Shown here one piece after another: positions 3,286 through 64,000 of a stretch of DNA of 64,000 nucleotides. Under the pieces are notes generated by a model that saw nothing but the letters and a program-made list of their open reading frames with translations, had not been told where the DNA came from and did not search any database. This DNA is from Candidatus Omnitrophota bacterium (GTDB taxonomy: Bacteria > Omnitrophota > Gorgyraeia > 2-01-FULL-45-10): contig JBAZKH010000005.1 of assembly GCA_041650935.1 (NCBI GenBank), forward strand, positions 1,574-65,573, in the 5' to 3' direction. The stretch's first letter is position 1. The number at the start of each line of letters is the position of its first letter. The translations under genes were made by a program, and so were the position numbers.

Positions 3286-3287
3286 CG

Positions 3288-29803: not shown

Positions 29804-30189
29804 TTTGCAGCTGCTTTCTCCTTAGGTTTCTTCGCACCGTATTTCGATCTGGATATCTTTCTGTCCACAACTCCGGCCGTATCAAGAACTCCCCTTACGA
29901 TATGATAGCGTACGCCCGGCAGATCCTTTACCCTGCCGCCCCTGACCAGGACTATGGAGTGCTCCTGCAAATTATGCCCGACACCCGGTATATAGGAGGT
30001 AACCTCAACGGCGTTTGTGAGCCTGACCCTTGCCACTTTCCTTAGAGCCGAATTCGGCTTCTTTGGCGTCTGGGTCTTTACCTGCAAGCAGACACCTCTC
30101 CTCTGGGGGCAGCCCTTTAACGCAGGCGACTTACTTCTGTTCTTGAATTTTTCCCTGCCTAATCTTATCAATTGGTTGATTGTCGGCAT
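29800..30189 (-). CDS. rpsL: 30S ribosomal protein S12
   Basis: 129 aa. Confidence 0.95.
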
Positions 30190-30192
30190 ATT

Positions 30193-34224: not shown

Positions 34225-34226
34225 AT

Positions 34227-37200
34227 CTATTTTTCCTTATCCTCGGGAACCCGCTTCTCCATCTTTATCTCAAGGCCGAGGGATTGAAGTTCTTTCACCA
34301 AAACATTGAACGACTCCGGGGTACCTGTCTGCAGTTTATTGTCGCCTTTGACTACGGCTTCGTATATCTTGGTCCTTCCTACGACATCATCCGATTTTAC
34401 GGTCAGGAGTTCCTGTAATGTAAACGCTGCGCCGTACGCCTCAAGGGCCCAGACTTCCATTTCGCCGAACCTCTGGCCGCCGAACTGCGCCTTACCGCCG
34501 AGCGGCTGCTGCGTAACCAGGGAATACGGGCCGATGGACCTGGCATGTATCTTATCGTCGACCAAATGCGCCAGCTTGAGTATGTATATGTAACCGACGG
34601 TTACTTTCTGGTCGAACGGCTTACCGGTAAAACCATCGTAGACCGCAACTTTACCTTCTTTTGGTATACCGGCCTTCTTCATCTCTTCCTTTATCTCGGA
34701 TTCGGCTGCGCCGTCGAAGACGGGGCTTGATACCTTAAAACCAAGAACCTTAGCCGCCCATCCCAGATGCGTTTCGAGTATCTGCCCTACGTTCATACGA
34801 CTGGGCACGCCGAGCGGATTCAGCACTATCTCAACCGGCGTACCATCTTCCAGGAACGGCATATCCTCTACGGGCAGTATTTTGGCAACCACGCCCTTAT
34901 TTCCGTGACGTCCCGCCATCTTATCGCCGACGGATATCTTCTTTTTGCTTGCTACGTAGACTTTAACCTTCTTCAATACGCCGGGCGGTAATTCATCCCC
35001 GCGCTTCACCCTGTCTATCTCTCTTTCAAGCTCGAAGGTCAGTTCCTCTATCTGGCTATCCAAAAGCCTGGTAACCCTGGCCACTTCCTGCTCAACTTCC
35101 GGATTATTAAGTTTTATATTTTCGAGGTCGCCTTTTTCGGCAATGCGCTTCAGGTCTTTCACCCTGACGGTCCTGCCCTGCGACATCAGCGCCCTGCCGG
35201 ACTCCTGGTCGAGAATGCCTGCCGCGAGTTTCTGCCCGACGAGAAGATTGTGGAGCTTCTTATACTTCTCTTCTTTTACCTTCGATATCTGCGTCTGGAA
35301 AGTCTCTTCCAGCGTCTTGATCTCCTTGTTCTCGGCGGTCCTCTCTTCTTTCGTCTTACTCCTTGCGTCCCTCCTGGAGAATATCCGCACATCGACGACT
35401 ATACCCTCGACACCCGGGGAAGCCACAAGCGATGAGTCTCTCACATCTCCGGCCTTCTCTCCGAAGATCGCTCTCAGAAGTTTTTCTTCCGGCGAAAGCT
35501 CGGTCTCCGACTTCGGCGTCACTTTACCCACTAATATATCTCCGGGGCCGACTTCCGCGCCGGTCCTTACGATGCCGTTCTCATCAAGATTGCGCAGGGC
35601 CTCTTCACCAACATTCGGGATATCCCTGGTGATCTCTTCATTGCCAAGGCGCGTATCCCTTGCCTCTATTTCGAATTCTTCTATGTGGACCGATGTATAT
35701 TTATCCTCCGCTACCAGCCGCTCGCTCAAAAGTATGGCATCTTCGAAGTTGTAACCTCTCCACGGCATGAATGCCACAAGGACGTTCTTACCAAGGGCCA
35801 ATTCGCCGTTTTCGGTCGCCGGACCGTCGGCTATAACATCGCCTTCCTTCACTTTATCGCCTAATTTCACAATCGGCCTGTGATTGATGCACGTGTTGGC
35901 GTTCGACCTTTCGAATTTGCTAAGCTTATACGACTTTCCGCTTATTGTGATCTCGCTCGAATCTACCGCAGTGACGGTACCCGCGTTCTTAGTGACAACA
36001 ACTGCGCCCGAATCCTTGGCGGCCCTGTACTCGATGCCTGTTCCGATCAGCGGAGCTTCTGTATAAAGAAGCGGAACTGCCTGGCGCTGCATGTTCGAAC
36101 CCATCAGCGCGCGGTTTGCGTCATCGTGTTCGAGGAATGGTATAAGGCAGGCGGCAACACTCACAAGCTGTCTCGGAGAGACGTCCATATACTGGACATC
36201 CTTAGGATCGGCCTGTATGAAGTCGTCTTTGGACCTGCAAAATACTTTGTCCTCGACGAAATGGTTGGATGAGTCCAGCTTGGCATTCGCCTGGGCTATA
36301 ACATAAAGGTCCTCGATATCCGCGGAAAGATAGTCGATCTTGTCGGTAACCCTTCCGTTCTCGACTTTCCTGTATGGCGTCTCGATAAAACCATATTTAT
36401 TGATCTTGGCGTACGTGCTCAACGACGCGATAAGTCCGATATTCGGGCCTTCCGGCGTCTCTATCGGACATACGCGGCCATAATGCGAGTAGTGTACGTC
36501 TCGCACCTCAAAACCGGCTCTTTCCCTGTTAAGACCGCCCGGGCCAAGCGCGCTCATGCGGCGCTTATGAGTAAGTTCCGCCAGCGGGTTTGTCTGGTCC
36601 ATGAACTGCGAAAGCTGGCTCCTGCCGAAGAAGTCGCGTATAACGCCTGAAATCAGCTTCGCGTTTACAAGGTTATGAGGCATCACATTCGAAAGATCGT
36701 ATATATTCATCCTCTCCCTGCAAGACCTGTCAACTCTTGCCAGCCCTATCCTTATCTGGTTCAAGAGCAGCTCTCCGACGCACCTTACGCGCCTGTTGCC
36801 GAGGTGGTCGATATCATCCGTAGCGCCCTGGCCGGCCTTCACCGCCAGCAATTTCAAGACAACCCTGACGAGCGTTTGCGGAGTAATCAGCCGCTCCTCC
36901 AGCGAGACGTTCATATCAAGCTTCCTGTTCAGCATGTAGCGTCCGACATCGCCGAGATCGTATCTCTTATTATCGAAAAATAACCTTGCGACAAGATTAG
37001 CAGCCGATTCGGGAGTCGGAGGATCGCCGGGCCTCAATTTCCTGTAAATATCGAGGAGCGCTTCCTCTTTAGTATGAGTATGATCCTTTTTAAGAGTATT
37101 CAGTATCTCCGGAATGACGGTCTTTATAACAGAGACCTTCCGCACGGACGACGCCCATATCTTCTCCCCCAGCTCTTTCGTGATCTTTTCAAATTTCGGC

Positions 37201-37934
37201 GCGAGGATTATATTCGTCTCTTTCTCTATCAAATCGCTTGCAAGCGTTTCGCCGATAAGTTTTTCGAGCTGTGCCGATCTCGTAATCTCATGGACCTCGA
37301 TACCGCCAAAGGCTTTTAGTATATCCTCATCGCTTGAATAACCAAAGACACGCAGGAAGACCGTCGCAAGAAACTTTCGTTTCCTATCGACGTAGACATA
37401 CAGGATATCATTCATATCAAACTCGAACTCGACCCATGCGCCCCTATAAGGTATGATCCGCGCAGAATAGACGGTTTTCCCGGAAGGGTGCGGCTCGGAC
37501 TCGAACGATATACCCGGAGAGCGATGAAGCTGACTGACGACAACACGTTCGTCGCCGTTAACTATAAAGGTACCTGTCTCGGTCATGAGAGGGATATCGC
37601 CGAGATAGACTTCCTGTTCCTTCGTCTCTTTTTTGGATTTAAGCCGCATCATTATCCGCAACGCGCCGGCGTAGCTCATACCCCTCTTCTTACACTCGGG
37701 GATGATATACTTCGGCTTGCCGATCGTATAATTCAGGTAGTCCAGCTTATACTCCCCATCCGGAGTTTCGATAGGAAATACTTCCCTGAACGCGGCCTCC
37801 AACCCTTCTTTTTTACGCTTGCCCTTTGGAACTTCAAGCTGCAGAAAATCACGGTACGAATCCAGCTGTATATCCAGCATATTCGGCAGTTTATAACATT
37901 CTTCCAGCTTGGCGTAACTTTTCCGTTTTTGCAT
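34227..37934 (-). CDS. rpoB: DNA-directed RNA polymerase subunit beta
   Basis: 1235 aa. Confidence 0.95.
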
Positions 37935-41467: not shown

Positions 41468-42728
41468 TTCTCGTCTTTCGTTGTGCGTTGTTAGCTGCGC
41501 GTTGATCGAACAACGCGCACCGGGCAACTATTCTATAACTTCGGTCACTACCCCTGCGCCAACGGTATGTCCGCCTTCACGTATCGCGAACCTTAACTCT
41601 TTCTCCATGGCTATGGGGGTAATCAAGACTACTTCGAACTGGACGTTATCGCCGGGCATTACCATCTCCACGTCTTTAGGGAGGGTAACGACTCCGGTAA
41701 CGTCTGTGGTCCTGAAGTAGAACTGGGGTCTATATCCGTTGAAGAAGGGCGTATGACGGCCGCCTTCTTCTTTGCTCAGGATGTATACTTCCGCTTTGAA
41801 CTTGGTATGGGGCGTGATCGATCCGGGCTTTGCCAGGACCTGGCCGCGCTCTAAGTCTGTCTTTTCAATACCTCTTAACAGGACGCCGATATTGTCTCCG
41901 GCCTGTCCTGAGTCGAGGAGCTTCCTGAACATCTCAACACCTGTAACAACGCTCTTTTTAGTGGGTTTTATACCGACTATCTCTATCTCCTCGCCTACTT
42001 TTATCTGACCGCGCTCGACCCTGCCTGTTCCTACCGTGCCGCGTCCTGTTATGGAGAATACGTCTTCTATAGGCATAAGGAAAGGCTTATCGAGGGCTCT
42101 CTGGGGCTCGGGGATGAAGGTATCGCATGCATCCATGAGGTCGAATATGGGCTTTACGGCATCGGCCGCATCCGGCTGTGTCATCGCCTTCAACGCGCTT
42201 CCTCTTATTACAGGGGTCTTATCTCCTGCGAATTTATACTTTGTGAGGAGCTCTCTTACTTCGAGCTCAACTAAGTCTACAAGCTCTTTATCTTCTACCA
42301 GATCTACCTTGTTTAAGAATACCACGATCGATGGGACGTTAACCTGGCGGGCCAGGAGGATATGCTCACGGGTCTGGGGCATCGGGCCGTCTACGGCGCT
42401 TACTACGAGTATTGCCCCGTCCATCTGGGCGGCTCCGGTTATCATATTCTTGATGTAGTCGGCGTGTCCCGGGCAGTCTATATGGGCGTAATGGCGCTTG
42501 TCCGTCTCGTACTCTACGTGGGCTACCGCTATCGTGACGGTCTTGGTTTCATCTCTTACGGTACCGCCCTTGGCGATATCGGCGTAGGACTTTACCTGCG
42601 CTTTGCCTTTCTTGGCAAGAGTAGCGAGTATCGCTGCTGTAAGAGTAGTCTTACCGTGGTCGATGTGGCCTATGGTGCCGATATTGACATGCGGCTTACT
42701 TCTTACAAACGTTTCCTTTGCCATAAAT
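41468..42728 (-). repeat. Duplicated segment: tuf copy 2 plus 3' flank hairpin
   Basis: See copy 1. Confidence 0.85.
41528..42724 (-). CDS. tuf: Elongation factor Tu (copy 2; protein identical to copy 1)
   Basis: 398 aa identical protein; one synonymous difference seen near the 5' end (ATA/ATC Ile codon 15); GGAGGGA SD. Confidence 0.95.
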
Positions 42729-51092: not shown

Positions 51093-52088
51093 TTACGGCA
51101 CCTTGACTTCTTCGAAGATCCTTTTGATCACATCTTCCGACGTCTTGTCCTCCGCTTCGGCTTCGTAGCTTACTATGACACGGTGCCTTAATACATCGAT
51201 ACCGATCGTCTTGACGTCCTGAGGAACTACATAGCCGCGGCCCTGCAGGAATGCGTACGCCTTCGCGGCAACGGAGAGAAATATGCTGGCCCTCGGGGAG
51301 GCGCCGTATTGGATAAGAGCGGTCAACTCATCGAGCTTGTAAGCGTTCGGTTCCCTGGTCGCGAAGACTATGTCAACGATATATTTCTCTATCCTTTCAT
51401 CGAGATAGACCTCGTCAACGACCTTTCTCGCTCTTACTATATCTTCCGGTCCTATAACGCTGGCGACACGTATCTTTTTATCGGTCATCGCCATCCTCTT
51501 CATGATCTTAAGCTCTTCTTCCTTCGAGGGATACCCTACCTTAAGCTTCAGCATGAACCTGTCGACCTGCGCTTCGGGAAGCGGGTACGTACCTTCGTGC
51601 TCGATCGGATTCTGCGTAGCCAGGACAAGGAACGGCTCGTCCAGTTTATACGTCTCTTCGCCAATAGTGACCTGCCGTTCCTGCATCGCTTCAAGCAGTG
51701 CGCTCTGGACCTTTGCGGGCGACCGGTTGATTTCATCCGCCAAAATGATATTGGCGAATATCGGTCCCTTCTTCGTGGTAAAATTGCCGTCCTTCGGGTT
51801 ATAGATGAGCGTACCGACGAGATCCGCAGGCAAAAGGTCGGGGGTAAACTGCAGGCGCTGGAACTTAGTCTTTATGCACTGCGCAAGGACTCTCACTGAA
51901 AGGGTTTTGGCAAGTCCCGGCACGCCTTCGATCAGTATATGGCCGTTGGCCAGAAGCCCCACAAGGAGCCTGTCGATAAGATATCTCTGGCCCACTATAA
52001 CTTTTTCCATCTCATCAACTAGCGATTTTACGAAAGCGCTCTCTTTTTTAACTTTTTCGTTGATCGATTCGATCCCGGTATTCATCAT
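51093..52088 (-). CDS. moxR: MoxR-family AAA+ ATPase
   Basis: 331 aa; Walker A 'GVPGLAKT', Walker B 'ILADEINR'. Confidence 0.85.
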   Translation of the reverse strand: MMNTGIESINEKVKKESAFVKSLVDEMEKVIVGQRYLIDRLLVGLLANGHILIEGVPGLAKTLSVRVLAQCIKTKFQRLQFTPDLLPADLVGTLIYNPKDGNFTTKKGPIFANIILADEINRSPAKVQSALLEAMQERQVTIGEETYKLDEPFLVLATQNPIEHEGTYPLPEAQVDRFMLKLKVGYPSKEEELKIMKRMAMTDKKIRVASVIGPEDIVRARKVVDEVYLDERIEKYIVDIVFATREPNAYKLDELTALIQYGASPRASIFLSVAAKAYAFLQGRGYVVPQDVKTIGIDVLRHRVIVSYEAEAEDKTSEDVIKRIFEEVKVP

Positions 52089-52504
52089 GATATTTCCTCC
52101 TGCGTTTTTCCGATATCCTTTATCTGTAAATTTATAAACTTTAAAAGGACGACCTTATCCAGGTATTCGAGGCTCAACGGCTTGGTTACGTAATCGTCCG
52201 CACCCGCATCGAGCGCCCTCTTCATGACATCTTCGTCTTTCTCACCCGTAACCATGATCACGACGATATCTTTATCTATCTCCTTGATCTTCTTCAGCGT
52301 CTCGATGCCGTCCATGCCCCGCATCTTTATATCGAGCAGCACGATTTTGGGCCGTTCCTTCTTGACAACAGATATGGCCTCGTTACCGCTCAAAGCGTTG
52401 AAGACTTCGTAATTCCTGGCGGTAAAGAATTCGTAGAAGAAGGAGTCGATACCCATCTGGTCATCGACGGTCAGGATCTTGCAGATAGGTGCCTGTTTGG
52501 ACAT
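52085..52504 (-). CDS. Single-domain response regulator (CheY-like receiver)
   Basis: Start at MSKQAPICKILTVDD; longer track ORF would overlap tRNA-Gly. Confidence 0.7.
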   Translation of the reverse strand: MSKQAPICKILTVDDQMGIDSFFYEFFTARNYEVFNALSGNEAISVVKKERPKIVLLDIKMRGMDGIETLKKIKEIDKDIVVIMVTGEKDEDVMKRALDAGADDYVTKPLSLEYLDKVVLLKFINLQIKDIGKTQEEIS

Positions 52505-52532
52505 TATCACTCCACATTTTGCGATGGTACGG

Positions 52533-52605
52533 TGGAGCGGGAGATGGGAATCGAACCCACGCAACGAGCTTGGAAGGCTCGTGTTCTACCATTGAACTAC
52601 TCCCG
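52533..52605 (-). tRNA. tRNA-Gly (anticodon UCC)
   Basis: GCGGGAGTAGTTCAATGGTAGAACACGAGCCTTCCAAGCTCGTTGCGTGGGTTCGATTCCCATCTCCCGCTCCA. Confidence 0.85.
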
Positions 52606-52611
52606 CATATA

Positions 52612-52711
52612 AATAGCTTGCCCCGCCATTAGTCTAACCTGGGGCGGGGTCCCGCCTCTAGTTTAACTCCGGGCGGGAGAAGGCTAGTGCTCTACCATTG
52701 AGCTACGCCCG
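52612..52711 (-). pseudogene. tRNA-Gly-like 5'-half fragment fused to GC-rich stem-loops (no T-arm)
   Basis: First about 35 nt (GCGGGCGTAGCTCAATGGTAGAGCACTAGCCTTC) align to acceptor/D-arm/anticodon stem of adjacent tRNA-Gly; remainder lacks GTTCGAxxC T-loop. Confidence 0.35.
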
Positions 52712-52778
52712 CATTTTATATCATGTAATTATATCATATAAGACACTACAGACAAGCGGAAAAGTTTAACTGCAGGCA

Positions 52779-52815
52779 TAAAAACGGGGCGGCTCTTCGA
52801 TCGAGAACCACCCCG
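52779..52815 (-). terminator. Weak putative terminator downstream of small secreted protein gene (GC stem plus UUUUU)
   Basis: CGGGG...CCCCG stem enclosing TCGATCGA palindrome, followed by U5 on minus transcript. Confidence 0.3.
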
Positions 52816-52846
52816 CCGATTCTATCCCATGCTAAACAACTCTAAC

Positions 52847-53215
52847 CTACTTTAGTTCTTGCACCTTGGTCGCTTTTCCGCCCTCTTTAGAAACCTCCAC
52901 TGACACCTTCTTACCCTTAAGCTGATTCAGGGTAATAGCATGGAAACCGGCGTCGAGGACCTTTACCGTATTGTCGAGAGGTATCACCTTGGTCTTGCCG
53001 CTATCTTCGGCCATTACCAGGGATCCTTCCGTCTTACCTCCGCCAAGGCTCTTCTCGATGACATTCGTCAACTTACCCACCATAACCCCTGTCGTCTCCA
53101 CTACGGCGCCTACGGGCTCGGTAGCTTTTGGCTTGGCTTCCTGTGCAGCATACGATAATGATGCCGCTAATACCAGCACCGCAACCACTATTAGGACCTT
53201 CTTCACTTGAATCAC
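52847..53215 (-). CDS. Small secreted protein of unknown function (signal peptide)
   Basis: 122 aa; GGAGGUGA SD; no recognisable domain. Confidence 0.55.
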   Translation of the reverse strand: MIQVKKVLIVVAVLVLAASLSYAAQEAKPKATEPVGAVVETTGVMVGKLTNVIEKSLGGGKTEGSLVMAEDSGKTKVIPLDNTVKVLDAGFHAITLNQLKGKKVSVEVSKEGGKATKVQELK

Positions 53216-53348
53216 CTCCCCGTTAGTTTGTTAAAATTATATTAGTACAAATATAGCACCGAATTACTGTGTCGTCAAGATATGCATCAGCGCCTTATCC
53301 TTCAATAATTCAGCTGTTTTTCCATCGTCAGTTATCAAAAATATCATC

Positions 53349-53726
53349 TTACTTTGGTTTCCCTATAAATCTCTTTACCTTTCCCAGCAATTCTTCCGGC
53401 ACAAATGGTTTCAATATACAATCATCCGCGCCCATCGCCTTGATATTTTCGGGAAGACTAGGGCGGATGGCACTTGCAGTAAATAAAATAATAGGGATAC
53501 CTTTATATTTATCATCGGATTTCAGTTTTTTACAAAGCTCGTCTCCCTGCATTTTGGGCAATAGCAAATCGAGTAGTATTAAATCAGGAGGGGTCTTCTG
53601 TATTATATCCATAGCCTCCTCGGCATCAACCGCCTCAATAACCTCATAACCTAACTTCTTTAACCTGACCGTTGCTAAATCAAGTATGTCCGGCTCGTCA
53701 TCAACAAAAAGAATCTTTTTTGCCAT
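53349..53726 (-). CDS. Single-domain response regulator (receiver)
   Basis: Start MAKKILFVDDEPDIL; abuts kinase stop. Confidence 0.75.
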   Translation of the reverse strand: MAKKILFVDDEPDILDLATVRLKKLGYEVIEAVDAEEAMDIIQKTPPDLILLDLLLPKMQGDELCKKLKSDDKYKGIPIILFTASAIRPSLPENIKAMGADDCILKPFVPEELLGKVKRFIGKPK

Positions 53727-53727
53727 A

Positions 53728-56577
53728 TCATGCCCTCCGTTCTTTAATCGGTAAAATGAAGTGGAAAACCGCGCCCTTGCCAAATTCCGATTCTGCCCAT
53801 ATCTTCCCCTTGTGCGCTTCTATTATTTGTTTACAAATCGATAGCCCCAAGCCTGCCCCGCCCACCTTTCTCTGTAATTGCGTAAATTGCTGAAATAGTT
53901 TGGGTATATCTTCTTTTTTAATGCCCGGACCGGTATCGTTAACCGTAACCTGAATACAATTATCCCGCCTGTCCGTGGTAATGGTAATACTGCCTTTGTC
54001 TGTAAACTTAAGGGCATTGTTCACCAGATTAGTCAAGACCTGGATAATTTTATCTCGATCGAATGTTACCCGTGGAAGATCCTTATCGAGCTTACACATA
54101 AAATCCAGATTCTTTTTCTCTACTACCGGAAGCATCGTTTGCCGTATTTCCTTAACCACTTCGTTTATATCATTCTCCCCCATCTTAAATTTCATTTTCC
54201 CGGACTCGAGCGTCTGAAAATCCAAAACTCCGTTAATCAGCCTATCCAGCCTATCTACATTTTTTTTGGTAATACCTAAATATTTTTGCTGCTCCGCGTT
54301 AATGTCTCCAAGTATTTTATCTAAAATCAAGGAAACCCCTTCTTTTATAGCGGCAAGCGGTGTTCTCAATTCATGAGAAACCATGCCGGCAAAATTTGAT
54401 TTTATCTCTGATGAGGTTTTAACAGCCTGCGCCTGGATTACCTCCTCGGCCGCGGCGGCCTGTTGAATGACAAAGGCGGTGGTAACGCTAAGATTGTCCA
54501 ATACCGCATCTTCATCTGACATTATTGCGTGTCTGGCAAAGAGAGCCAGAACGCCTATCGTCTCTCCGCCGGGAACTTTAAGCTGGTAGCCGGCGAACGA
54601 CTTTAGCCCCAACTCACGAGCCCATTCATGATTATGCACCCCGGGGTCATTTAACACATCATTAGTCAGAAACTTGTGATGTTCGCCGGAAGCGATGCGT
54701 CCGATCTTATAGCATCCAAACGGGACCCGGGCATGGCTTTTACCGTCTATGTGCGTATACCTGCCGGAGCTTGCCATTAAATGCAGGCATTTATCGCGAA
54801 AACGGCAGACATGAGGGCCTTCTTTGGCTTCGGCATGAATGCACCCTTTATCACACAAGTCTCCCGGCCGGATCAGCCATATCCGGCAAAAATCGGCGTC
54901 GAAAATACGCACAATATTGCCTGTTATGCTCTTAAGCTTATCCTCAAGCGTAGCAGGCGCAAGAAGCGATTGCTGGATCGCATTAACATCCTCTTGCCAC
55001 TTTAACGCGATTTCACGCTCAGCCTCTACCTTCTTACGCTCGGTTATATCACGCCCTTCGGGAATAAGAAATACCGTCTTCCCATCCTGGTCCTTAATCG
55101 GTTTAAGCGAAAAATCTATACAGTGGATGCTTCCATCGGCAGCAGGATGAGTTGCTTCAAAGAACACGGTTTCGCCGCTCGCGGCTTTCGTTACGGCCGC
55201 ACGCAGCTTATCCTGCATTGTTTTTGAATGAGCCCACCATGGTGTATCCCAGAAAGGTTTACCTAAACAATCCGATTCATTAATTCCCGCAAACTGCATA
55301 GCCGTCCTGTTTGCCTCGATAAGCGTACCATCCACCGTCATCATGCCGATAAACTGAAAAGCCTGGTCAAAAAGAGCGCGAATTTTTCTCTCATTTAAAC
55401 GCGACTGCTCTTCGGCCCTCTTACGCTCGGTGATGTCCCAGAAAAGTCCAAAGACCCCTGTAACATCACCGGTTTTGTTCCGGACAGGAACCTTAACCGT
55501 ATTGATAAAAACCGTTTTAGAATTTCCAAGATAATCTCCTATTACCACGTACTCTTCTTCTATATTCTCGGTCTTTCCCGATTCCATGACTCTTTTATCA
55601 TCGGCCCTGTATTTCTCAGCCAGATATGTTGGGAAAAAATCATAGTCTGTCTTTCCTGCGATCTCTTCGGGCCTGATCTTCAAATCTTTTGCATAATTTT
55701 CATTACAGGATATAAAGACCGAATTACTATCTTTTAAAAATACCTTTCCTGGAAGATTTTCAATAAGTGTCCTGTATTGCTGTTCCTTAGCCTGCATCAA
55801 TTCATTCTCTATGCGCTTGCGTTCGGTGATATTGCGAATATTGCATTGCATAACTTTCGCCCTGTTAACTAAAAAAGCCTCTGTGTTTATGCTCAGGTTT
55901 TTTTTGGTTTTTACCGGCGTGTCTTCGTAATGAATCACGCCGTCTTTCTCTAATCTTGACAGGGTCTCCTGAAAATCCTTGTCATTTTTAACCACGCCGA
56001 TTTCCCATAGTTTCTTTTTCAGAAGCTCCTCGTGAGAATAACCCAGCAATCCCTGGATAGATTCGTTAGAGTTAAGGATATCGCCTTTGGTTTTATGAAC
56101 GAGCAGTAACCCATCCCTCGATGTTTCAAAGGCCCTGCGATAACGCTCCTCAGACTCTTTTAACTCTATTTCCAAACGCCTACGCTCAGTAATGTCTTCG
56201 ATGGCCAGCAGGATCAGCTCTTCCTCTATTACCCCTGCTATTTTCTTAGAGACACGCACCTGACAGGCATTCAGGCACATGATTCGTTCGCCGATTTGCT
56301 CAAATTTGTGCTCGACTTCATAATCTTTCACAACTTTTTTCTCCGGCAGGATATCTTTAAGCAGAAGAAGTAGTTTTGGAATATCCCATTGCTTATCGCC
56401 TAAATCAGGAAGCGGTCGGCCGATTGTTTCTTTTTCTACGGTCTTAAAGTTGATATAGAAAGCCTGGTTGGCAGAAATAATTTTTAAGTTTTTATCCAAA
56501 ACCAAAAACGGCTCCCTTAGCGTAGCAATGATACTATTGGCATACTTTAATAGCGCTTCAACCCCTGGCTTGTCCAT
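53728..56577 (-). CDS. Multi-sensor hybrid-type histidine kinase (multiple PAS/PAC plus GAF plus HisKA plus HATPase_c)
   Basis: 949 aa; 'HELRTPL' H-box, 'DTGPGI' G-box. Confidence 0.85.
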   Translation of the reverse strand: MDKPGVEALLKYANSIIATLREPFLVLDKNLKIISANQAFYINFKTVEKETIGRPLPDLGDKQWDIPKLLLLLKDILPEKKVVKDYEVEHKFEQIGERIMCLNACQVRVSKKIAGVIEEELILLAIEDITERRRLEIELKESEERYRRAFETSRDGLLLVHKTKGDILNSNESIQGLLGYSHEELLKKKLWEIGVVKNDKDFQETLSRLEKDGVIHYEDTPVKTKKNLSINTEAFLVNRAKVMQCNIRNITERKRIENELMQAKEQQYRTLIENLPGKVFLKDSNSVFISCNENYAKDLKIRPEEIAGKTDYDFFPTYLAEKYRADDKRVMESGKTENIEEEYVVIGDYLGNSKTVFINTVKVPVRNKTGDVTGVFGLFWDITERKRAEEQSRLNERKIRALFDQAFQFIGMMTVDGTLIEANRTAMQFAGINESDCLGKPFWDTPWWAHSKTMQDKLRAAVTKAASGETVFFEATHPAADGSIHCIDFSLKPIKDQDGKTVFLIPEGRDITERKKVEAEREIALKWQEDVNAIQQSLLAPATLEDKLKSITGNIVRIFDADFCRIWLIRPGDLCDKGCIHAEAKEGPHVCRFRDKCLHLMASSGRYTHIDGKSHARVPFGCYKIGRIASGEHHKFLTNDVLNDPGVHNHEWARELGLKSFAGYQLKVPGGETIGVLALFARHAIMSDEDAVLDNLSVTTAFVIQQAAAAEEVIQAQAVKTSSEIKSNFAGMVSHELRTPLAAIKEGVSLILDKILGDINAEQQKYLGITKKNVDRLDRLINGVLDFQTLESGKMKFKMGENDINEVVKEIRQTMLPVVEKKNLDFMCKLDKDLPRVTFDRDKIIQVLTNLVNNALKFTDKGSITITTDRRDNCIQVTVNDTGPGIKKEDIPKLFQQFTQLQRKVGGAGLGLSICKQIIEAHKGKIWAESEFGKGAVFHFILPIKERRA

Positions 56578-56595
56578 TTAATTTTTATCTTTCAT
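56578..56595 (-). other. 5-codon uORF (MKDKN) whose UAA stop abuts the kinase AUG; SD positioned for the uORF
   Basis: AAGGAGG 9 nt upstream of uORF AUG; UAAAUG junction with kinase start. Confidence 0.3.
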
Positions 56596-56611
56596 CTTTT
56601 AAGACCTCCTT

Positions 56612-56666
56612 AAAAACAAAAAACCCAAGGTCTTGTGCTGTTTTAAGCACAAAAATACTTGGGTTG
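56612..56666 (-). terminator. Intrinsic terminator after the NTase cassette (nested hairpin plus U6GU5)
   Basis: AACCCAAG..(UUGUGCU..AGCACAA)..CUUGGGUU followed by UUUUUUGUUUUU on minus strand. Confidence 0.65.
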
Positions 56667-56832
56667 GCTTTAGAAAAACTTACCAGAGCGCTTGCCCTTG
56701 CTTGCCCGCATGCATGTATAGCTTAACATCTTACCCTGCCTCATCAAAGATTTTTTTATATCCTCATCGGTTATACGATACAATCCTTTTTAAGTTGATG
56801 GTAAGGGTTGGTAATGAACCGAACTTACGAAA

Positions 56833-57009
56833 TCACTTTAGCGAAAAAGGAACATTGACATGCATAGTAACCTCTTCCCTCACAGAAACCTTGTCTTTCG
56901 GAAAATTATTCGCGCAAAAATTTACAAACTCGATGTATTCATCCATCGATAGCCATCTATCCTGCTCTGGGAATTTGCCAACAGGCAGTTTTAACTCGCC
57001 TTTCCTCAT
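56833..57009 (-). CDS. Hypothetical 58-aa protein translationally coupled (ATGA overlap) to upstream nucleotidyltransferase gene
   Basis: MRKGELKLPVGKFPEQDRWLSMDEYIEFVNFCANNFPKDKVSVREEVTMHVNVPFSLK; not in ORF track (below 60 aa); start ATG overlaps NTase TGA. Confidence 0.4.
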   Translation of the reverse strand: MRKGELKLPVGKFPEQDRWLSMDEYIEFVNFCANNFPKDKVSVREEVTMHVNVPFSLK

Positions 57010-57545
57010 CTCTTGAGCACTCCTAAGATATCTTTATATATTTCTGCCGTTCCAAATTTCAAACAGATGCCTTTAAATTCCGCACCATTAAAATCTACTT
57101 TGTTTATCTTTATCAAGTCTATTATGTCAGGCATATCCTTCCATAATCTATTCTTTGACCCATGTTTTATGGCATGAAGTTTAAGCGCAATTAAATGATT
57201 AAGGGACGGGATAACCAATTCTGATCCCGCAATCTTAGCTTTTTGGCCTTCCTCCAGTATCTTATCCCGCGTCGCTTCATCGACAATCATAAAGTCAACA
57301 TCCGCCGATTCTTTAACGTTCGACATGCGCACCGCTACATTGGTCGCAAAATCTTCGGCGTAACCAGCTTCAATTAACGCCTTCTCAATCTTTTTAAAAT
57401 CATCTTTTGTCATCAGAAAATCAACATCGCGGGTCCCTCGCGTAACCTTATAAAAATTCACCGCGAAACCGCCTATAAGTATGCAAGGTACGGCTGATTT
57501 TTTTGACGCTTCAGCAACAAGGCGAAAAACCTTTGAATAATCCAT
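57006..57545 (-). CDS. Nucleotidyltransferase-fold protein (G[GS]x13DxD; AbiEii/MNT-like)
   Basis: 'LIGGFAVNFYKVTRGTRDVDF' plus second acidic 'DVDFMIVDE'; start at MDYSK (track ORF extends to 57611). Confidence 0.5.
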   Translation of the reverse strand: MDYSKVFRLVAEASKKSAVPCILIGGFAVNFYKVTRGTRDVDFLMTKDDFKKIEKALIEAGYAEDFATNVAVRMSNVKESADVDFMIVDEATRDKILEEGQKAKIAGSELVIPSLNHLIALKLHAIKHGSKNRLWKDMPDIIDLIKINKVDFNGAEFKGICLKFGTAEIYKDILGVLKR

Positions 57546-57700
57546 TGGAATATTATAGCGAAAAAATGGCCAAAACGGAAGGAGAATAATTACGCGGAAA
57601 TCTAACGGCATCTTTTGCGTTTCTTAAGAGAATCGGATAGCAATATTCCTCGCGCACCATTGCGGATAGCACGCCGGCCTTGCGCGATGGTCTTAGGTGG

Positions 57701-57844
57701 TCACGAATACCTCTCGGCGTACTTATCCACCAAAAATCTAAGCATCTTCTGATACTTGGTATTATACTTTTTGGCTTGTCCTTTAAAGAATTCGACACTT
57801 TTTTCGCTTAGCCTCAAGGTAACCATAACAGTATGCTCCGGCAT
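57701..57844 (-). CDS. Ribbon-helix-helix (CopG-like) small DNA-binding protein, putative antitoxin/autoregulator
   Basis: MPEHTVMVTLRLSEKSVEFFKGQAKKYNTKYQKMLRFLVDKYAERYS; beta-strand 'VTLRLSEK' plus two helices; hand-translated (alternative start 57826). Confidence 0.4.
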   Translation of the reverse strand: MPEHTVMVTLRLSEKSVEFFKGQAKKYNTKYQKMLRFLVDKYAERYS

Positions 57845-57883
57845 AACCAAGTCCTTAGGCGGAGGCAAAATGAGTTATCCACA

Positions 57884-57913
57884 AAGTAGCCGACGTTTAA
57901 ACGTCGGCTACTT
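57884..57913 (-). promoter_or_regulatory. 30-bp perfect palindrome AAGTAGCCGACGTTT|AAACGTCGGCTACTT (operator and/or terminator hairpin)
   Basis: 40 nt upstream of RHH ATG, about 100 nt downstream of giant ORF stop. Confidence 0.45.
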
Positions 57914-58011
57914 GCTTAATTCGATTTATCAAATAACTGATATAAGCATACCGGATCATATTGCGATCGTCAAGCTGTGAGAAACAAGATTTTAATATTT
58001 ATTACTACATA

Positions 58012-61000
58012 TTACAACGACTTGAGAACGGCTGCGTCACGTTCGTGGAACTCGACTATCTCCTTCGTATCTATCGGTCTTATTCTGATCAGTATTAGAC
58101 CCGTCGCTAATAGCTGCCGAATTCCGCTGGCGTCCATTTTGGCAAGTTCATCTAAAAGCACTTCGTAACTAGCTGACCCAGCGATAGCCGCAATACCTCG
58201 AATAAAACGTTCTGTGGATTCATTGATCTTGCTAATATCTATTGTCGACCTGGCCATTAGATCTGAACGATTCAGAAACTCTAACCCCGTCATGCCGCAG
58301 GTTCCAACAGGAGTAGCGGTTTTGCCTATCTCGCCTGTCATGTAGACAACATATGAGGCAGATTCCAATTTACCATCTCGTTTATCGCCTTCTTTTTGAT
58401 AAGCGAAAGTAATGACCCTCTTCTGCTGCGTATCTTTATCTGGTATTTCCTTTTGCACTGATACAATCAACGCTTGCCGCCCTTCAGGAGTATCTCTAAA
58501 AAGATTGACCGTGATATTATTACTCAGGTTACATCTAATTATTAGCCTGCTCACCTCATTCTTTGGTTGCGCAGCATAGCGTTGGTATGCTTCAAAAACT
58601 TGGTCGGCGAATTCTTCGCTGATAGGTATATTTATCATACCTGGTGCGCCATCAAAAATCTGTTTTTCGCATCGATTTTTAATCTCTTGGTCTATAGCTC
58701 TCATAATGTCTATCCAACCTGACCAGCTATCGCTTGCATTAGCAATTTCAAGACCTTGAATCTGTACTGCTTTTTGACCTAGCGCGTTAGAAACAACAGA
58801 AACAGGTATAACCGGCATCTCGCCTGTGGCAGAATCGCCACGTTCTATCTTCTTAAATTTAATTCTTGGTCTTTGCGTATCGGATACTCTGCTACTATCC
58901 TGTTGTCCTCTTTGTTCTTTAAGCGATTCTAAACGATTCATAATTGTCCGGACCATGCTATATGGAAACATTTGTGTCCCAACAGTTGAAGTCCCGGATA
59001 AACTTTGCTGTCCGCTTCCTTTTACTCTATCTGCTATCGTGCGAAAACTTATCAAAGCTTCTTCCATTGCCCTAGCGTCGATTCTTTCACTTACATAGCT
59101 ATCGATAATATTTCTAGCTTCTATTTCATTTCGTTCACGCCACTGTTTTTCATGAAAAGTTTCATACAATATTCTTAATCCATGCTGTTGATTACTTACG
59201 TAACGTATAGCACCTATTAACAGTGCAATCTCTGTATTTTCCCAGCCGCTTAAGATATCTTCCGGCATTTCACCAGTAGCTGAGTCGCCGCGAGCTGGTG
59301 ATGCATTTGTGATATCACTTATATAAATACCAAATTGCTCCCCTGTTAACCAAATGAGAGAAGCAGGGCCGGGAGTTATTAATCTAATCGTACCTGTTGC
59401 TTGCTTCGGTTGCCCAGTATAGTGATCGTTCCACTGAATTGTAATTGGCGCTTTGCTAGCCATCCACGTATTATATTGTTCAAGTCCATCCTTGCTAGCA
59501 ACGACAGGCTTTCTTTCCGGTAACTCGCTTGACTTATGGGGCATAAGGATTTCATGCTGAACTAACCATCTTACGATGGCCTCACCACTTATATTTGAAA
59601 GATCCGTATCCGGAGGCAGTCTATTTGTTAATTCGTGCACAGAGAGCATTTGTTCACGAAGTCCGTTCAACGAGCATTCTGCTATTATCCACGAATCCCT
59701 TGGATGCGCTTGAGCATTTATATCCGTATTCTTAATTCTCTCCGCAAGTTGTGATGGGGTCTTGGCATCTTGAGAGCTAGGTAATTTATTATCAGACTTC
59801 ATAGTAGTTAAAGTACTAGTGAATTTTATTGGCGAAACAAGTCTCATATTTAAACCTTCGCCTTCGATAGCCGATAACAAAATGTTGCGCGTAAGGTCAT
59901 GAAGCTGTCCGTTCGACTGAAGCATGTTTAGTATTTTTAGATGATTTTCATTCTCAGCCCCACCCCATATCTTATGATCTGGATTACGGGCTTTTCTTAC
60001 TAGTTCGACAAAAAGCTCCGGTCTGCTTTCTAGCAGATGCTGGAGGGCCACCATTACAGCATTAATGCCGTCTCGATACGCAAAAGCACCATTCTTGAGA
60101 ATCACTGTATCTGGCATTTCACCCGTTGCAGAGTCACCACGAGTCGCTCTTCTCTCATCATCCTCTCGTATGAGTCTATTTGCTTTTGCAACCCATGCGC
60201 TTAGTTCCTGAGCGCTCTGATTTGAAAAATTGGTGTTCCAAAATGATTCATGAAAATTCCTTGCCCTCAACGTATCTGCAAGCCGATTCGCATAATCTAT
60301 CAGCTCTCTTCTGTCCGTTGGACTGGTAGCAAGAGGCATACTACCTGCTATCTCAACCGGCGGGTTTAATGCTCCCTGCGATATGAATCTAGCGCTTTTT
60401 AATTGTTCTGCCAATTCGGGCGATATGTTTTTAGGCATTTCTCCTGTAGCAGAATCGCCGCGGATCTTGGTATCACTAGTTGGTGTTCCTGCTATAATCA
60501 ATGCACCTTCTGGAACTAATTTTAAATCGCTAGTCCAAAATGTATTGTCGTTACGCGCCAATAGAGAGAAATCTTGCGTGGTTGGACCAGCGCTTACTTC
60601 CCATTGATTTGATGTATTGACCCGACTAAAAATAAGTTCTTTAACAATTGTTCCTCTATCGCTATCAAGTGTAAAGAAAACTGAAATCTTAACAACATTC
60701 CCAGCCGCATCTTTAGTTACTCTGCTATTCTGCGGTCTTACTGATCCAGATCGCCACGCTATGGCTTCTAATACGTTTCTTAACGAAATACTGTTACGAT
60801 CCGATACGCCCTTATTCAATAAGTCACTCATTGTTAATATCGGCTCAACTTCTGTAACCTCCGACAATGTTTGAACTAAATGGCTATTTTGCACATCAAG
60901 CAACCTTTGGTAAATAACCTTTTCGGGCGGATTAACCAACGTACTCTCCGCGATGCTCTCTGTCTGTGGACTTATAAGAGTAAGGCCGGAAATACGCTCT

Positions 61001-63996
61001 GTGTCGGTTTCAGAAATTAATCGAATTGGTAATGGCCATCTCAACGCTCCGACATGCGGAGATCCCTTTTCTTTTTTATTATAATCTTGATAAAAATCGT
61101 CTTTTACCACAGCACAAATTTCGTTATCTTTGTCGAAACCGAGACAAATGAGAGGATTTGGACCTTTGTAAACATAGTTAACAACCCACCGAAGTAATTC
61201 TCCTGACATTGGAGTACGAAATACTTGTGTTTGTTCTGGGCCAAATGAGATAACGTGTTTCTCATGGTCTGCTACGCGTGCCCCTTCTTCAAACGCAATT
61301 GTTTCGCCATTTGTCAGCGTAATATCTAATTGGTGAGCAAAACGGCTATGTTGTCTCTCAAACGTATAGTCATCTATAGGGTGCGCATCGCCTGGCGATG
61401 TCGTTATAGCAGAAATCATCCTATCATTGCCTCTGCTCCATAATATCGCTCGCTCATCGTCTGGCAATATCTTATATTTTCTTCTTCCTAATATTTCGGG
61501 TGCTTTTATACGCAGAATTTCAAAGATTTTAGTAAGGATTGTAGGGTTCTCAGCTATAGTGGCATTTTTAGGCATTTCACCTGTGGCAGAGTCGCCGCGA
61601 GGACGTGCATCATATCCATGTATCATCCCATACGCGATGTCTTGAACATCGGAAGCGGCTGGTAAGTACCCTAAAGGATGCGCTGACCAAAAGCTTTCCG
61701 TTCTATGTGTAAATAAGCTAAGCCATGCCCTAAAGGCATCCCTGTCAGGTTCTGGGACATCTAACATATCCGCAATTTTATCAGAGTTAAGTACAATGGG
61801 GCTTAACGCTGGGTTCATCAAATAGTAATTGTAGAATTGAATAAACGGCACTAACCCATTTCGCGGAAGTGAAGTAACCTCAGTGTCAGGTTTATTGGGC
61901 ATCTTGCCTGTGGCAGAGTCACCACGGACAGGCTTCCCGGTAATCATCTTCTCTGTCTCTGCGGAAACCTTGTCAAATATATCCAACAGTCTTGCTCGTA
62001 ATTTGTTTCTCTCACCATATTCGTAAGTTGAAGTCGAGCTTAAATTTCTTCGAGATAACATTGTTATATCGGAATCCCGTTTTTCTTTGTCCGACGCCAA
62101 AGTCTCTTTTATTCTATTCCAATCTTCTTGCGTAGTCGCTGATTGTACCGCATGATTTAAATTTTCCAACATGTTCCATAGAGTGCTATATACATTACCA
62201 GCTCTCGTTTCAAAATAAGTAGGCGGCTCGAATTGTCTGATAATGTCATATCCTATTGAGACTAAGTTCCTGATTCTTCCCTTTGTTACGGCAGTGGTAT
62301 CTTTTACAGATTCTGAACTCTGGCCTGCATCTGGTGGCATTCTTCCCGTGGTAGAATCGCCACGAGTTGTCGCAATAGTTTCGATTCTATTACGAATTTC
62401 ATTTTTCATTCCTTCTGAAAATCCGTCAAAATTTTTATTGAATCCAGTGTTATATATGCGATTAAATATATCTTCTCTTATCTCTAGCTGGTTGGGATTC
62501 GACATGTTAATACTTCCTGTTGAGCCGGGAACATGTGCACGTAGCCATTTTTTGCCTTGTTTCATTTTTTGAACTAAAACTGATTCTCCGTCTTGCATGG
62601 TTTGGTTAACAATGTCTATGGCTTCTAGATGCATAAAAACATCCAACCTAAATGATATATCAGGATGTGCCGCCATAGATTCAGCATTCGTTGCATGGAT
62701 ATTATTTAAATCTCGAGTGGTGGGTAGTTGCCCGATTTCTAATACATAGGCAACAACTTTATTTACATAGTCGCTCAATCTGTATCCTGCTTCTTCAATT
62801 ACGGGCATAAGAGAATCCTTGCCTGACAGTCGGGAATCTAAATAATTGGCAATAAGATCATCGGCGATAGCCTGAACCAGCCGTTGCCGATTTGCTAAAC
62901 GCGATGCTTCTTCTGGTAATCCTGGTTGCGTTTGCTCTGTAGGCATTTCACCTGTAGCGGAGTCGCCGCGAGTCAAACCCTTTTCAATCTTTGCCAGTAT
63001 TTCTCCGACTTTAACCTGTGATACTTCCGGATCATTATTGGCATGCTGTATTTCCGTGCCGGTCTCTAAATAATATGTTGCGGCATTTAATTCGTGGAGT
63101 AGATAGTCAATGAACTCATTATTGTCTCCGGTATAAGTAACATTTACCCCGTAGCCGCGACTGAAAGATGCGATGCGCCACGGTATGACGGACTTATCTT
63201 TGCCTGTTACAACATGAATTAAGCCCTTGGATGCGCCAAATGGCTTGTTACCTATCTCGATAAGCTTTGCTACGTTCTCTTTGCCAATTTTGGCCTCTAA
63301 GGCTTTGGAAAGATCTGGAGCAAGGAAATCTGCTAACAAATGCGCCTCTAACCCATCGTATGTTTCATTAGGAGTATGCGCCATCTTGAGCAATAAGTCC
63401 CACATCGCTTGATGCCCTGGACAATCTTCTCTCGGCCAAAGTTTGTGATCAAATATGATTATATTTTCAAAACTCGGATCATAAGTTTCGTTCCCTTCCC
63501 TGACCGCATATAATGACTTACCCGCAATCTCGCCTACTTTTTCATTGAAACTTCCCGTTTGCGGTTCATGCGTTAATCTTAGGTACCCTCCGGGAACCAT
63601 TAAAAGAATCCCTTTCTTGGGATTTGCCTCCAAAGCACTTATAATATCGGCTGACAACGCAAATATATTTCTGTCGCGAGCACCTACTATCCCCATTTCA
63701 GAAAGTACTTGTGGAACAGCTATATTAGAAATACGTGATTCTACTATGGTCTCAATATGGCTTTTACCGCCTGAAAGTATTTTGAAATACGGGTTTTCGA
63801 TATCCGTTTTCTCAAATTTCGGCATTACCTCTATATATGAGTATCCCTTATTCTTTAATAGCTTTGAGAGGTTGCCGGTATGAAAACCGCCGGTTACAAG
63901 AATTGTTACATCCTTCTTTTCAGCTTTAAACTTATTCGCTATATTTTTTATGAAAGCATCGTCTCTTTTCTGGGAATATACATAGAACTTCTCCAT
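58012..63996 (-). CDS. Giant protein of unknown function (at least 1994 aa; possibly 5'-truncated by window edge) with 8 copies of RGDSATGEMP
   Basis: Long uninterrupted minus-strand ORF; motif copies at about 62943, 62335, 61899, 61571, 60434, 60113, 59264, 58813; no recognisable domains. Confidence 0.7.
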   Translation of the reverse strand: MEKFYVYSQKRDDAFIKNIANKFKAEKKDVTILVTGGFHTGNLSKLLKNKGYSYIEVMPKFEKTDIENPYFKILSGGKSHIETIVESRISNIAVPQVLSEMGIVGARDRNIFALSADIISALEANPKKGILLMVPGGYLRLTHEPQTGSFNEKVGEIAGKSLYAVREGNETYDPSFENIIIFDHKLWPREDCPGHQAMWDLLLKMAHTPNETYDGLEAHLLADFLAPDLSKALEAKIGKENVAKLIEIGNKPFGASKGLIHVVTGKDKSVIPWRIASFSRGYGVNVTYTGDNNEFIDYLLHELNAATYYLETGTEIQHANNDPEVSQVKVGEILAKIEKGLTRGDSATGEMPTEQTQPGLPEEASRLANRQRLVQAIADDLIANYLDSRLSGKDSLMPVIEEAGYRLSDYVNKVVAYVLEIGQLPTTRDLNNIHATNAESMAAHPDISFRLDVFMHLEAIDIVNQTMQDGESVLVQKMKQGKKWLRAHVPGSTGSINMSNPNQLEIREDIFNRIYNTGFNKNFDGFSEGMKNEIRNRIETIATTRGDSTTGRMPPDAGQSSESVKDTTAVTKGRIRNLVSIGYDIIRQFEPPTYFETRAGNVYSTLWNMLENLNHAVQSATTQEDWNRIKETLASDKEKRDSDITMLSRRNLSSTSTYEYGERNKLRARLLDIFDKVSAETEKMITGKPVRGDSATGKMPNKPDTEVTSLPRNGLVPFIQFYNYYLMNPALSPIVLNSDKIADMLDVPEPDRDAFRAWLSLFTHRTESFWSAHPLGYLPAASDVQDIAYGMIHGYDARPRGDSATGEMPKNATIAENPTILTKIFEILRIKAPEILGRRKYKILPDDERAILWSRGNDRMISAITTSPGDAHPIDDYTFERQHSRFAHQLDITLTNGETIAFEEGARVADHEKHVISFGPEQTQVFRTPMSGELLRWVVNYVYKGPNPLICLGFDKDNEICAVVKDDFYQDYNKKEKGSPHVGALRWPLPIRLISETDTERISGLTLISPQTESIAESTLVNPPEKVIYQRLLDVQNSHLVQTLSEVTEVEPILTMSDLLNKGVSDRNSISLRNVLEAIAWRSGSVRPQNSRVTKDAAGNVVKISVFFTLDSDRGTIVKELIFSRVNTSNQWEVSAGPTTQDFSLLARNDNTFWTSDLKLVPEGALIIAGTPTSDTKIRGDSATGEMPKNISPELAEQLKSARFISQGALNPPVEIAGSMPLATSPTDRRELIDYANRLADTLRARNFHESFWNTNFSNQSAQELSAWVAKANRLIREDDERRATRGDSATGEMPDTVILKNGAFAYRDGINAVMVALQHLLESRPELFVELVRKARNPDHKIWGGAENENHLKILNMLQSNGQLHDLTRNILLSAIEGEGLNMRLVSPIKFTSTLTTMKSDNKLPSSQDAKTPSQLAERIKNTDINAQAHPRDSWIIAECSLNGLREQMLSVHELTNRLPPDTDLSNISGEAIVRWLVQHEILMPHKSSELPERKPVVASKDGLEQYNTWMASKAPITIQWNDHYTGQPKQATGTIRLITPGPASLIWLTGEQFGIYISDITNASPARGDSATGEMPEDILSGWENTEIALLIGAIRYVSNQQHGLRILYETFHEKQWRERNEIEARNIIDSYVSERIDARAMEEALISFRTIADRVKGSGQQSLSGTSTVGTQMFPYSMVRTIMNRLESLKEQRGQQDSSRVSDTQRPRIKFKKIERGDSATGEMPVIPVSVVSNALGQKAVQIQGLEIANASDSWSGWIDIMRAIDQEIKNRCEKQIFDGAPGMINIPISEEFADQVFEAYQRYAAQPKNEVSRLIIRCNLSNNITVNLFRDTPEGRQALIVSVQKEIPDKDTQQKRVITFAYQKEGDKRDGKLESASYVVYMTGEIGKTATPVGTCGMTGLEFLNRSDLMARSTIDISKINESTERFIRGIAAIAGSASYEVLLDELAKMDASGIRQLLATGLILIRIRPIDTKEIVEFHERDAAVLKSL

Positions 63997-64000
63997 GCTA

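Follow-up and report, generated by a model that had tools for sequence, protein, structure and literature searches.

Sequence-specific processing of large multi-module precursors at several sites is routine in viruses, and to our knowledge only a few cases are found in cellular bacteria, such as the MARTX toxins and the gingipain precursors. MARTX toxins are giant secreted proteins with conserved N-terminal and C-terminal regions and a center of unrelated modules that are reshuffled between relatives, and the exposed linkers between these modules are cut by an internal protease. Viral polyproteins, the gingipain RgpA/Kgp precursors, and precursors of ribosomally synthesized and post-translationally modified peptides (RiPPs) such as cyanobactin PatE likewise place a conserved short site next to hypervariable units, and the protease is encoded in or beside the precursor. 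Here, we describe a giant gene of a Candidatus Omnitrophota bacterium whose product may be organized along similar lines. It lies at the end of a 64,000-nucleotide stretch of contig JBAZKH010000005.1 (assembly GCA_041650935.1, positions 1,574 to 65,573 of the forward strand; the whole of this stretch is called the window below) and encodes P0001, a protein of 2,434 amino acids in which the decapeptide RGDSATGEMP recurs eight times with little variation. We put at about an even chance the reading that these decapeptides are endoproteolytic processing sites in a self-contained, MARTX-like polyprotein.

The MARTX toxins appear to be the closest functional analogue of P0001, in the sense of an analogy and not of membership, since the overall plan is alike and the cutting of exposed linkers by an internal protease is also the mechanism that we propose for P0001. 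In contrast to MARTX toxins, however, P0001 has neither RTX repeats nor a C80 cysteine protease domain (no Pfam match) and carries a Sec-type signal peptide rather than being a candidate for type 1 secretion, while the MARTX linkers have no reiterated ten-residue motif and the candidate proteases of P0001 are of a different fold. MARTX toxins, too, include a TIKI-fold domain (RRSP), but there it is a cargo effector and not the processing enzyme. Compared to viral polyproteins, gingipains, and PatE, to which P0001 has no homology, the units are modules of 107 to 379 amino acids, the organism is a cellular bacterium, the decapeptide differs between paralogs, and cleavage is a prediction.

Giant multi-enzyme proteins of Omnitrophota have been reported by two preprints (Nielsen & Lui 2026, bioRxiv 10.64898/2026.06.07.730766; West-Roberts et al. 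2023, bioRxiv 10.1101/2023.11.21.568195) that, going by their accessible text, list proteins from 10,000 amino acids upward. As far as described there, these giants share with P0001 the phylum, a signal peptide or membrane anchor, and the combination of many unrelated domains, in their case enzymes, on one chain, whereas P0001 falls below the size criterion and none of its cargo is recognized by Pfam. The accessible text of both preprints mentions neither conserved N-terminal and C-terminal domains nor a junction motif, processing, polyproteins, or TraB, and a full-text literature search for Omnitrophota together with polyprotein gave no match. Within the literature searched, neither the junction code nor the conserved domains of the family that we present below have been described. 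When the initial annotation of the window called the system previously undescribed, this was right for the motif and the idea of processing within that literature, but not for giant multi-domain Omnitrophota proteins as such.

Inside the window, the giant open reading frame (ORF) comprises 1,994 codons and, as initially annotated, reaches the window edge without any in-frame stop; its stop codon is at 58012-58014. The sequence upstream of the window supplies the initial 440 codons and gives the full protein (WC522_06740 of the NCBI metagenome-assembled genome, MAG). The identical 2,434-amino-acid product is called in three independent assemblies (the NCBI MAG, ENA ERZ27247363, and Logan SRR8542065), which makes the assembly collapse that had been named as a caveat unlikely, and the copies of the motif differ in their DNA and have unique flanks. 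The reading frame of 7.3 kb is unbroken and has conserved family domains at either end. Pfam and NCBIfam gave no usable match for the window protein or for P0001 and its relatives P0002 to P0004, and Pfam showed no repeats; a phmmer search of P0001 against PDB sequences found nothing, and the cargo modules have neither a Pfam match nor a recognizable function. That no signal peptide or domain can be recognized, another early statement, is true of the part inside the window, but full-length P0001 has a signal peptide as well as conserved N-terminal and C-terminal domains. The N-terminal leader of the family is basic, continues with a hydrophobic stretch, and ends in "..D[LF]AWA/G", and we infer from this leader sequence alone that P0001 is exported. 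From the N-terminus to the C-terminus, P0001 can be read as a signal peptide, a TIKI-like hydrolase domain with a helical insertion (the N-domain), a second domain that we call HE, a cargo of seven unrelated modules of 107 to 379 amino acids, and a C-terminal domain (Table 1).

The eight copies of the decapeptide comprise six times RGDSATGEMP, once RGDSATGKMP, and once RGDSTTGRMP. All eight had been placed correctly in the initial annotation, and the alanine-to-threonine exchange in the second copy had been missed. Their spacing is irregular (202, 146, 109, 379, 107, 283, and 150 amino acids), in line with the range of about 107 to 379 given earlier. The 30-nucleotide cores share a mean pairwise identity of 79% (67% to 93%), and the differences are concentrated at wobble positions with synonymous changes such as CGC/CGT, GGC/GGT, TCT/TCC/TCA, and CCT/CCA/CCG/CCC, among others. 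Because the wobble positions vary while the ten residues are kept, it is the peptide rather than the DNA that is conserved, just as had been suggested when the copies were judged not to be a DNA repeat; selection on the motif is at the protein level.

Outside of the decapeptide, the directly flanking residues are polar and not conserved between the copies of P0001. When the nine inter-motif segments were compared all against all by BLASTP, only motif-anchored alignments at the segment starts were obtained, mostly of 10 to 21 residues and in a few cases of up to about 90 residues at 25% to 45% identity, with weak scores of at most 31 bits and E values from 2e-5 to 0.9. The flanks of the copies are therefore unrelated, as the first reading of the sequence had it. 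P0001 contains 8 similar 8-mers (at least 6/8 identity) against 1 to 2 in shuffled versions (n = 30), which ranks first in a set of 89 family members with 1,000 or more amino acids, and a chance origin of the eight copies is excluded. The one motif copy that was modelled lies in a low-confidence coil between helices, with predicted local distance difference test (pLDDT) values of 28 to 50.

Table 1. Position of the giant gene, its decapeptide copies and its conserved domains (coordinates of the window).
Feature	Coordinates	Strand	Remarks
Giant ORF	58012..63996	minus	Window part, residues 441-2434 of P0001
N-domain, C-terminal end	63667..63996	minus	P0001 ~441-550; TIKI/TraB/erythromycin-esterase-like; includes invariant GGFHT
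GGFHT motif with His430	63877-63891	minus	Invariant; numbering of alignment A1
HE domain	62971..63708	minus	P0001 ~537-782; invariant His-Glu at 63091-63096
Motif copy 1, RGDSATGEMP	62941..62970	minus	P0001 783-792; 42 aa past the HE histidine
Motif copy 2, RGDSTTGRMP	62335..62364	minus	P0001 985-994
Motif copy 3, RGDSATGKMP	61897..61926	minus	P0001 1131-1140; opens cargo module seg3
Motif copy 4, RGDSATGEMP	61570..61599	minus	P0001 1240-1249
Motif copy 5, RGDSATGEMP	60433..60462	minus	P0001 1619-1628
Motif copy 6, RGDSATGEMP	60112..60141	minus	P0001 1726-1735; opens module seg6
Motif copy 7, RGDSATGEMP	59263..59292	minus	P0001 2009-2018
Motif copy 8, RGDSATGEMP	58813..58842	minus	P0001 2159-2168; 276 aa before the C-terminus, abuts the conserved C-terminal domain
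Conserved C-terminal domain	58015..58812	minus	~265-270 aa, alpha/beta; ends ...IRPID..I.EFH...A.VL[KR][SA]L-COOH

Related versions of the motif are found in other members of the protein family, and those compared here are the ones closest to P0001 by N-domain identity. In P0004, a paralog encoded by the same MAG, [V/A]RDTAMQMP is present five times in addition to a degenerate first copy (LGDTAMSTSAVP), while P0003 carries GGDKATAVMP, RGDTATAEMP, and RGDFATAEMP, L003 carries DDFRMAVMP, DDFHMAEMP, SDFVTAEMP, and RGDFSTSQMP, L008 carries RRDMAMMLP and ARDMAMTLP, and P0002 carries SRGDFNAARMP and DNSATAKIP. Among 171 other family proteins, six contain the pattern [GR]D.A[TM]x(1-2)[ML]P, with 16 occurrences in total where 0.1 would be expected. 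What these relatives have in common is the core D-x-A-[T/M]-x-x-[M/L]-P, and VRD, ARD, RRD, DDF, SDF, or GGD stands in the place of RGD, which is not kept; the suggestion that the tripeptide acts as an integrin ligand is not supported. The position of the motif is fixed as well: The first copy follows the histidine of the HE domain by 42 to 51 amino acids in 5/6 proteins, and the last copy lies 273 to 314 amino acids from the C-terminus, directly ahead of the C-terminal domain, in all five of five. Judged from these sequence patterns, the motif is a selected, protein-specific junction signal.

Exact copies of the decapeptide appear to be private to P0001, since a metagenome scan with the back-translated peptide returned no match and the search for further RGDSATGEMP proteins that had been recommended early on thus found the peptide nowhere else in that collection. 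The relaxed form RGDxATxEMP gave 17 single metagenome matches that were unrelated on translation and mostly fell into short ORFs without the N-domain of the family; the sole long ORF among them (L096) encodes an unrelated high-GC protein. More distant family members have reiterated peptides of their own, namely RTSP[A/L] seven times (P0015), [A/G]RT[A/S]T eight times (P0033), LASN.GL six times (P0035), and PAAP-rich sequences (P0025), and in P0035 the motif lies between Pfam domains and inside none of them. Punctuation by a private motif may thus have arisen repeatedly in the family. The strict decapeptide is a clade-specific refinement; P0001 with eight copies is the extreme, and its paralog P0004 has five copies of its own version.

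P0001 is far from being the orphan it was first taken for. A protein search retrieved 47 large homologs of 1,100 to 3,300 amino acids, the named ones nearly all from Omnitrophota, and when GTDB was scanned at one genome per species, the N-domain turned up at 545 loci, with several such loci or paralogs possible in a genome. The best 80 of these 545 loci are all from Omnitrophota, though some of the records are labelled "uncultured Planctomycetia". Of 77 family ORFs recovered, 11 are longer than 3,880 amino acids and continue beyond the end of the 10-kb flank, and the longest complete member seen among the representatives has 5,326 amino acids. The homologs resemble P0001 at the two ends only, and the middle is hypervariable, with cargo that in various family members includes radical SAM, phosphoglucomutase (PGM), enolase, glutamate dehydrogenase (GDH), HATPase, patatin, HEAT, and CheR. 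Like cassettes delimited by the motif, cargo modules also move between paralogs, where they stand in another order. Over its whole length, seg3 of P0001 is homologous to residues 641-736 of P0002, where SRGDFNAARMP then follows; part of seg6 is homologous to residues 847-947 of P0004, right after the first P0004 site; and both modules recur at other positions in P0002, P0004, and P0005. The family is Omnitrophota-specific and multi-copy, and its cargo is shuffled among paralogs.

Some individual members show further peculiarities. In P0004, residues 1640-2063 consist of a 212-amino-acid unit repeated twice in tandem with 100% amino acid identity and starting exactly at VRDTAMQMP, either by a very recent duplication or as an assembly artefact. 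Two enzymes in the cargo of P0035 seem to be circularly permuted: Enolase_C (1639-1936) lies ahead of Enolase_N (2065-2173), and the ELFV_dehydrog domain of the GDH (618-774) lies ahead of ELFV_dehydrog_N (909-1008).

The N-domain spans about 500 conserved residues containing IHIQDAHCNY ... LEGG ... VTGGFHT, and its AlphaFold2 model, built with an alignment of 26 sequences (A1), is confident (pLDDT 88.7). The predicted fold is alpha/beta with a parallel beta-sheet core as in EreA/B/C, ChaN, TraB, TIKI, and RRSP, and the relatives listed for the model are EreC, two Bacillus EreA-like "succinoglycan biosynthesis" proteins, HopBA1, ChaN, and a TraB-family protein. By its modelled structure, the N-domain belongs to the TIKI/TraB/EreA/ChaN superfamily. 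In alignment A1, H35, E63, R402, and the GGFHT motif with H430 do not vary, and D33 hardly does; H35 and E63 are spaced by 28 residues, the same distance as in the catalytic His-Glu pairs of RRSP (H3902/E3930) and Bcr135 (H85/E113; PMC6254334). The N-domain differs from the TIKI/TraB-PrgY/EreA/ChaN superfamily by the absence of a sequence-profile match, by an insertion of about 300 helical residues that separates both halves of the fold, and by an aspartate in place of the first glutamate. In P0001 to P0004, it matches no Pfam or NCBIfam model at E<=1, with TraB, Erythro_esterase, and Cofac_haem_bdg included in the search, and for this reason it can be considered a sequence family that is new but adopts a known fold. 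A search of PDB sequences with the A1 profile gave only calmodulin matches that were judged spurious. We know of no member of the superfamily that heads a multi-module precursor.

The adjacent HE domain follows the pattern ...H.GG.G.IYL...(10-30)...hhHEh.a, and of the 47 homologs, about 14 contain it. Its profile matches 58 proteins among 1.84 billion representatives and, in that library, only this family; almost all of these matches are located at residues ~530-860 of giant proteins directly behind the TIKI-like domain. Weak matches and a low-confidence model suggest that its fold is possibly zincin-like. At the other end of P0001, the C-terminal domain has the consensus ...IRPVD..I..F.K.EAEVLRAL across homologs and no sequence match in Pfam, NCBIfam, or the PDB; a Pfam scan over 29 C-terminal domains gave no consistent family, and the profile search against PDB sequences returned spurious matches only.

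These features can be combined into a model in which the decapeptide would serve as junction signal between the parts of P0001 and as a site-specific endoproteolytic site, so that the precursor would be cut into about nine products after export. Most economically, the protease would be encoded within the same polypeptide, where the TIKI-like domain, with the site-specific endopeptidases TIKI1/2 and RRSP among its relatives, would be the first candidate and the adjacent HE domain the second. Each paralog keeps its own version of the site, which would make processing protein-specific. Three points lead us to favor processing: One site lies directly behind the hydrolase-like domains and another right before the terminal domain, an arrangement known from self-processing precursors, the predicted fold and the invariant residues of the first domain resemble those of site-specific endopeptidases, and the sites are uniform within a protein and differ between paralogs as enzyme–substrate co-evolution in cis would bring about. 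As in self-processing polyproteins, a reiterated conserved sequence, here a putative recognition site, stands at the module boundaries. The recognition site and polyprotein suggested in the initial annotation thus remain the best fit to homologous, protein-specific motif variants at the same architectural positions, with cleavage and the identity of the protease being what we infer computationally.

Several points weigh against this interpretation. A fold alone is no proof of peptidase activity, given that the superfamily comprises esterases and non-enzymes or inactive proteins besides the site-specific endopeptidases TIKI and RRSP (PMC6254334). Furthermore, an aspartate takes the place of the first glutamate of the 2His/2Glu set in the N-domain, and a single factor acting in trans could equally serve two paralogs with related motifs in the same genome. 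Finally, 83 of the 89 family proteins of at least 1,000 amino acids have three or fewer similar 8-mers, and with so few strongly reiterated members, processing at a strict decapeptide is no general property of the family; P0015, P0033, and P0035, which have the clearest motifs outside of the clade, lack the HE domain. The more specific proposal that Omnitrophota produce true cellular polyproteins, in which the N-terminal TIKI-fold domain is an endopeptidase that reads a private, co-evolving ten-residue "cleavage code", with paralogs in one cell being processed orthogonally, is more speculative, and we regard it as tentative and rather unlikely in this strict form.

Among other functions of the motif, the strongest contender is that of an uncleaved linker, i.e., a short linear docking motif, all copies of which bind one partner and thereby organize the modules on a single chain. 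Such a partner could be part of P0001 itself, namely its N-terminal helical insertion or its C-terminal domain, or else a scaffold, a chaperone, or an adaptor for secretion. The junction location, the protein-specific variants, and the exposed coil would fit docking equally well, and the giant multi-enzyme Omnitrophota proteins are discussed as single chains, without mention of processing, in the accessible text of the two preprints. On the other hand, sites behind a hydrolase-like domain and before a terminal domain are typical of processing, and ten invariant residues are long for a docking motif, so that docking seems to us an unlikely, if still serious, explanation.

Alternatively, the motif could be a reiterated site of post-translational modification, for example, O-glycosylation or phosphorylation of Ser/Thr in D-S-A-T by a dedicated enzyme encoded elsewhere. 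The polar, exposed flanks would suit such a function, P0001 keeps Ser/Thr at positions 4 and 6, and position 4 is Ser or Thr in both P0001 and P0004. Position 6, however, is occupied by Met instead of Thr in P0004 and L008. Among relatives, K, T, F, M, or D is found at position 4, and the best-conserved residues of the core (A, M/L, and P) offer no modifiable side chains. With no modifying enzyme adjoining the giant gene either, we deem modification improbable.

Still less credit can be given to a signal at the level of nucleic acids, either an internal translation start at an ATG after GGNGAR or a cassette-insertion scar homogenized by gene conversion. Every copy does contain an ATG preceded by GG[T/A/C][G/A]A[A/G], modules are shuffled among paralogs, and the duplicated unit of P0004 starts at the motif. 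Yet, it is the peptide that is selected while wobble positions vary, recent gene conversion would have left identical DNA, the methionine is replaced by Leu or Ile in relatives (..MLP/..TLP in L008 and ..KIP in P0002), and the purine run stops just 1 to 3 nucleotides from the ATG, a distance too short for a ribosome-binding site of the usual kind; this makes such a signal very improbable. That the copies arose as artefacts of assembly or sequencing, or that the ORF is not a real gene, as the MAG origin of the sequence and the suspiciously perfect tandem duplicate in P0004 might insinuate, can be practically dismissed in view of the three concordant assemblies, the divergent DNA and unique flanks of the copies, and the uninterrupted frame with conserved domains at both ends. 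Sortase/LPXTG and CTERM sorting signals, the D[ST]G of aspartic proteases, and 2A-like skipping peptides had also been considered and were set aside as apparent misfits to the conserved residues or to the organism.

If the sites are indeed cleaved, P0001 would be the clearest bacterial polyprotein so far, combining eight near-identical sites, a protease candidate in cis, and paralog-specific variants. Processing would assign a role to a TIKI-fold family that is uncharacterized and of which Omnitrophota have hundreds of copies, and it would offer a mechanism by which giant multi-enzyme ORFs become working proteins. The function of these giant ORFs of the phylum would then become testable, with the motif predicting the exact boundaries of the products, and Omnitrophota, as ultra-small, host-dependent bacteria, would gain a one-gene route to exporting and releasing whole sets of proteins. 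Orthogonal pairs of protease and site, if real, would also be useful tools. Should the motif be a docking linker instead, it would still delimit the modules of a protein that otherwise defies annotation.

The window is chromosomal and includes rpoB, rpoC, fusA, and two tuf genes. Over 52-64 kb, where the giant gene is located, the GC content is 0.41-0.45 against about 0.50 elsewhere in the window, and the nucleotidyltransferase gene next to it (57006-57611) belongs to PF14907 (NTP_transf_5/AbiEii), which agrees with the lower-GC accessory DNA beside a nucleotidyltransferase that had been recognized from the outset. The low-GC stretch extends over at least 22 kb (0.37-0.46 versus about 0.50), formed by positions 52000-64000 of the window and by positions 1-10000 of locus L081 beyond the window edge. 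It contains toxin–antitoxin-like pairs, among which we count a Gp49/HTH pair, the nucleotidyltransferase at 57006-57611, and two small, adjacent and overlapping ORFs without a Pfam match (L081:8866-9207 and 9204-9500) that look toxin–antitoxin-like by eye. A PAS/GAF histidine kinase and a response regulator are encoded at 53349-56577.

Around 3 kb upstream of the giant gene and outside the window, L081:2076-7001 encodes a secreted protein of 1,641 amino acids without a Pfam match. It has a signal peptide ending in "..DLAWA" and the C-terminal sequence "...PPIRQVDYAHV...", both of which recall the family by eye, while a TIKI-like domain is absent; it was rejected as a family member with an hhalign probability of 1.3% against the C-terminal domain profile and no BLASTP match. 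Elsewhere in the window, two EF-Tu ORFs of equal length and Pfam scores (25946-27142 and 41528-42724) flank the genes fusA-rpoC-rpoB at 27158-37934, and a recent preprint reported genes for EF-Tu, EF-G, and ribosomal proteins within hypervariable regions of Omnitrophota chromosomes.

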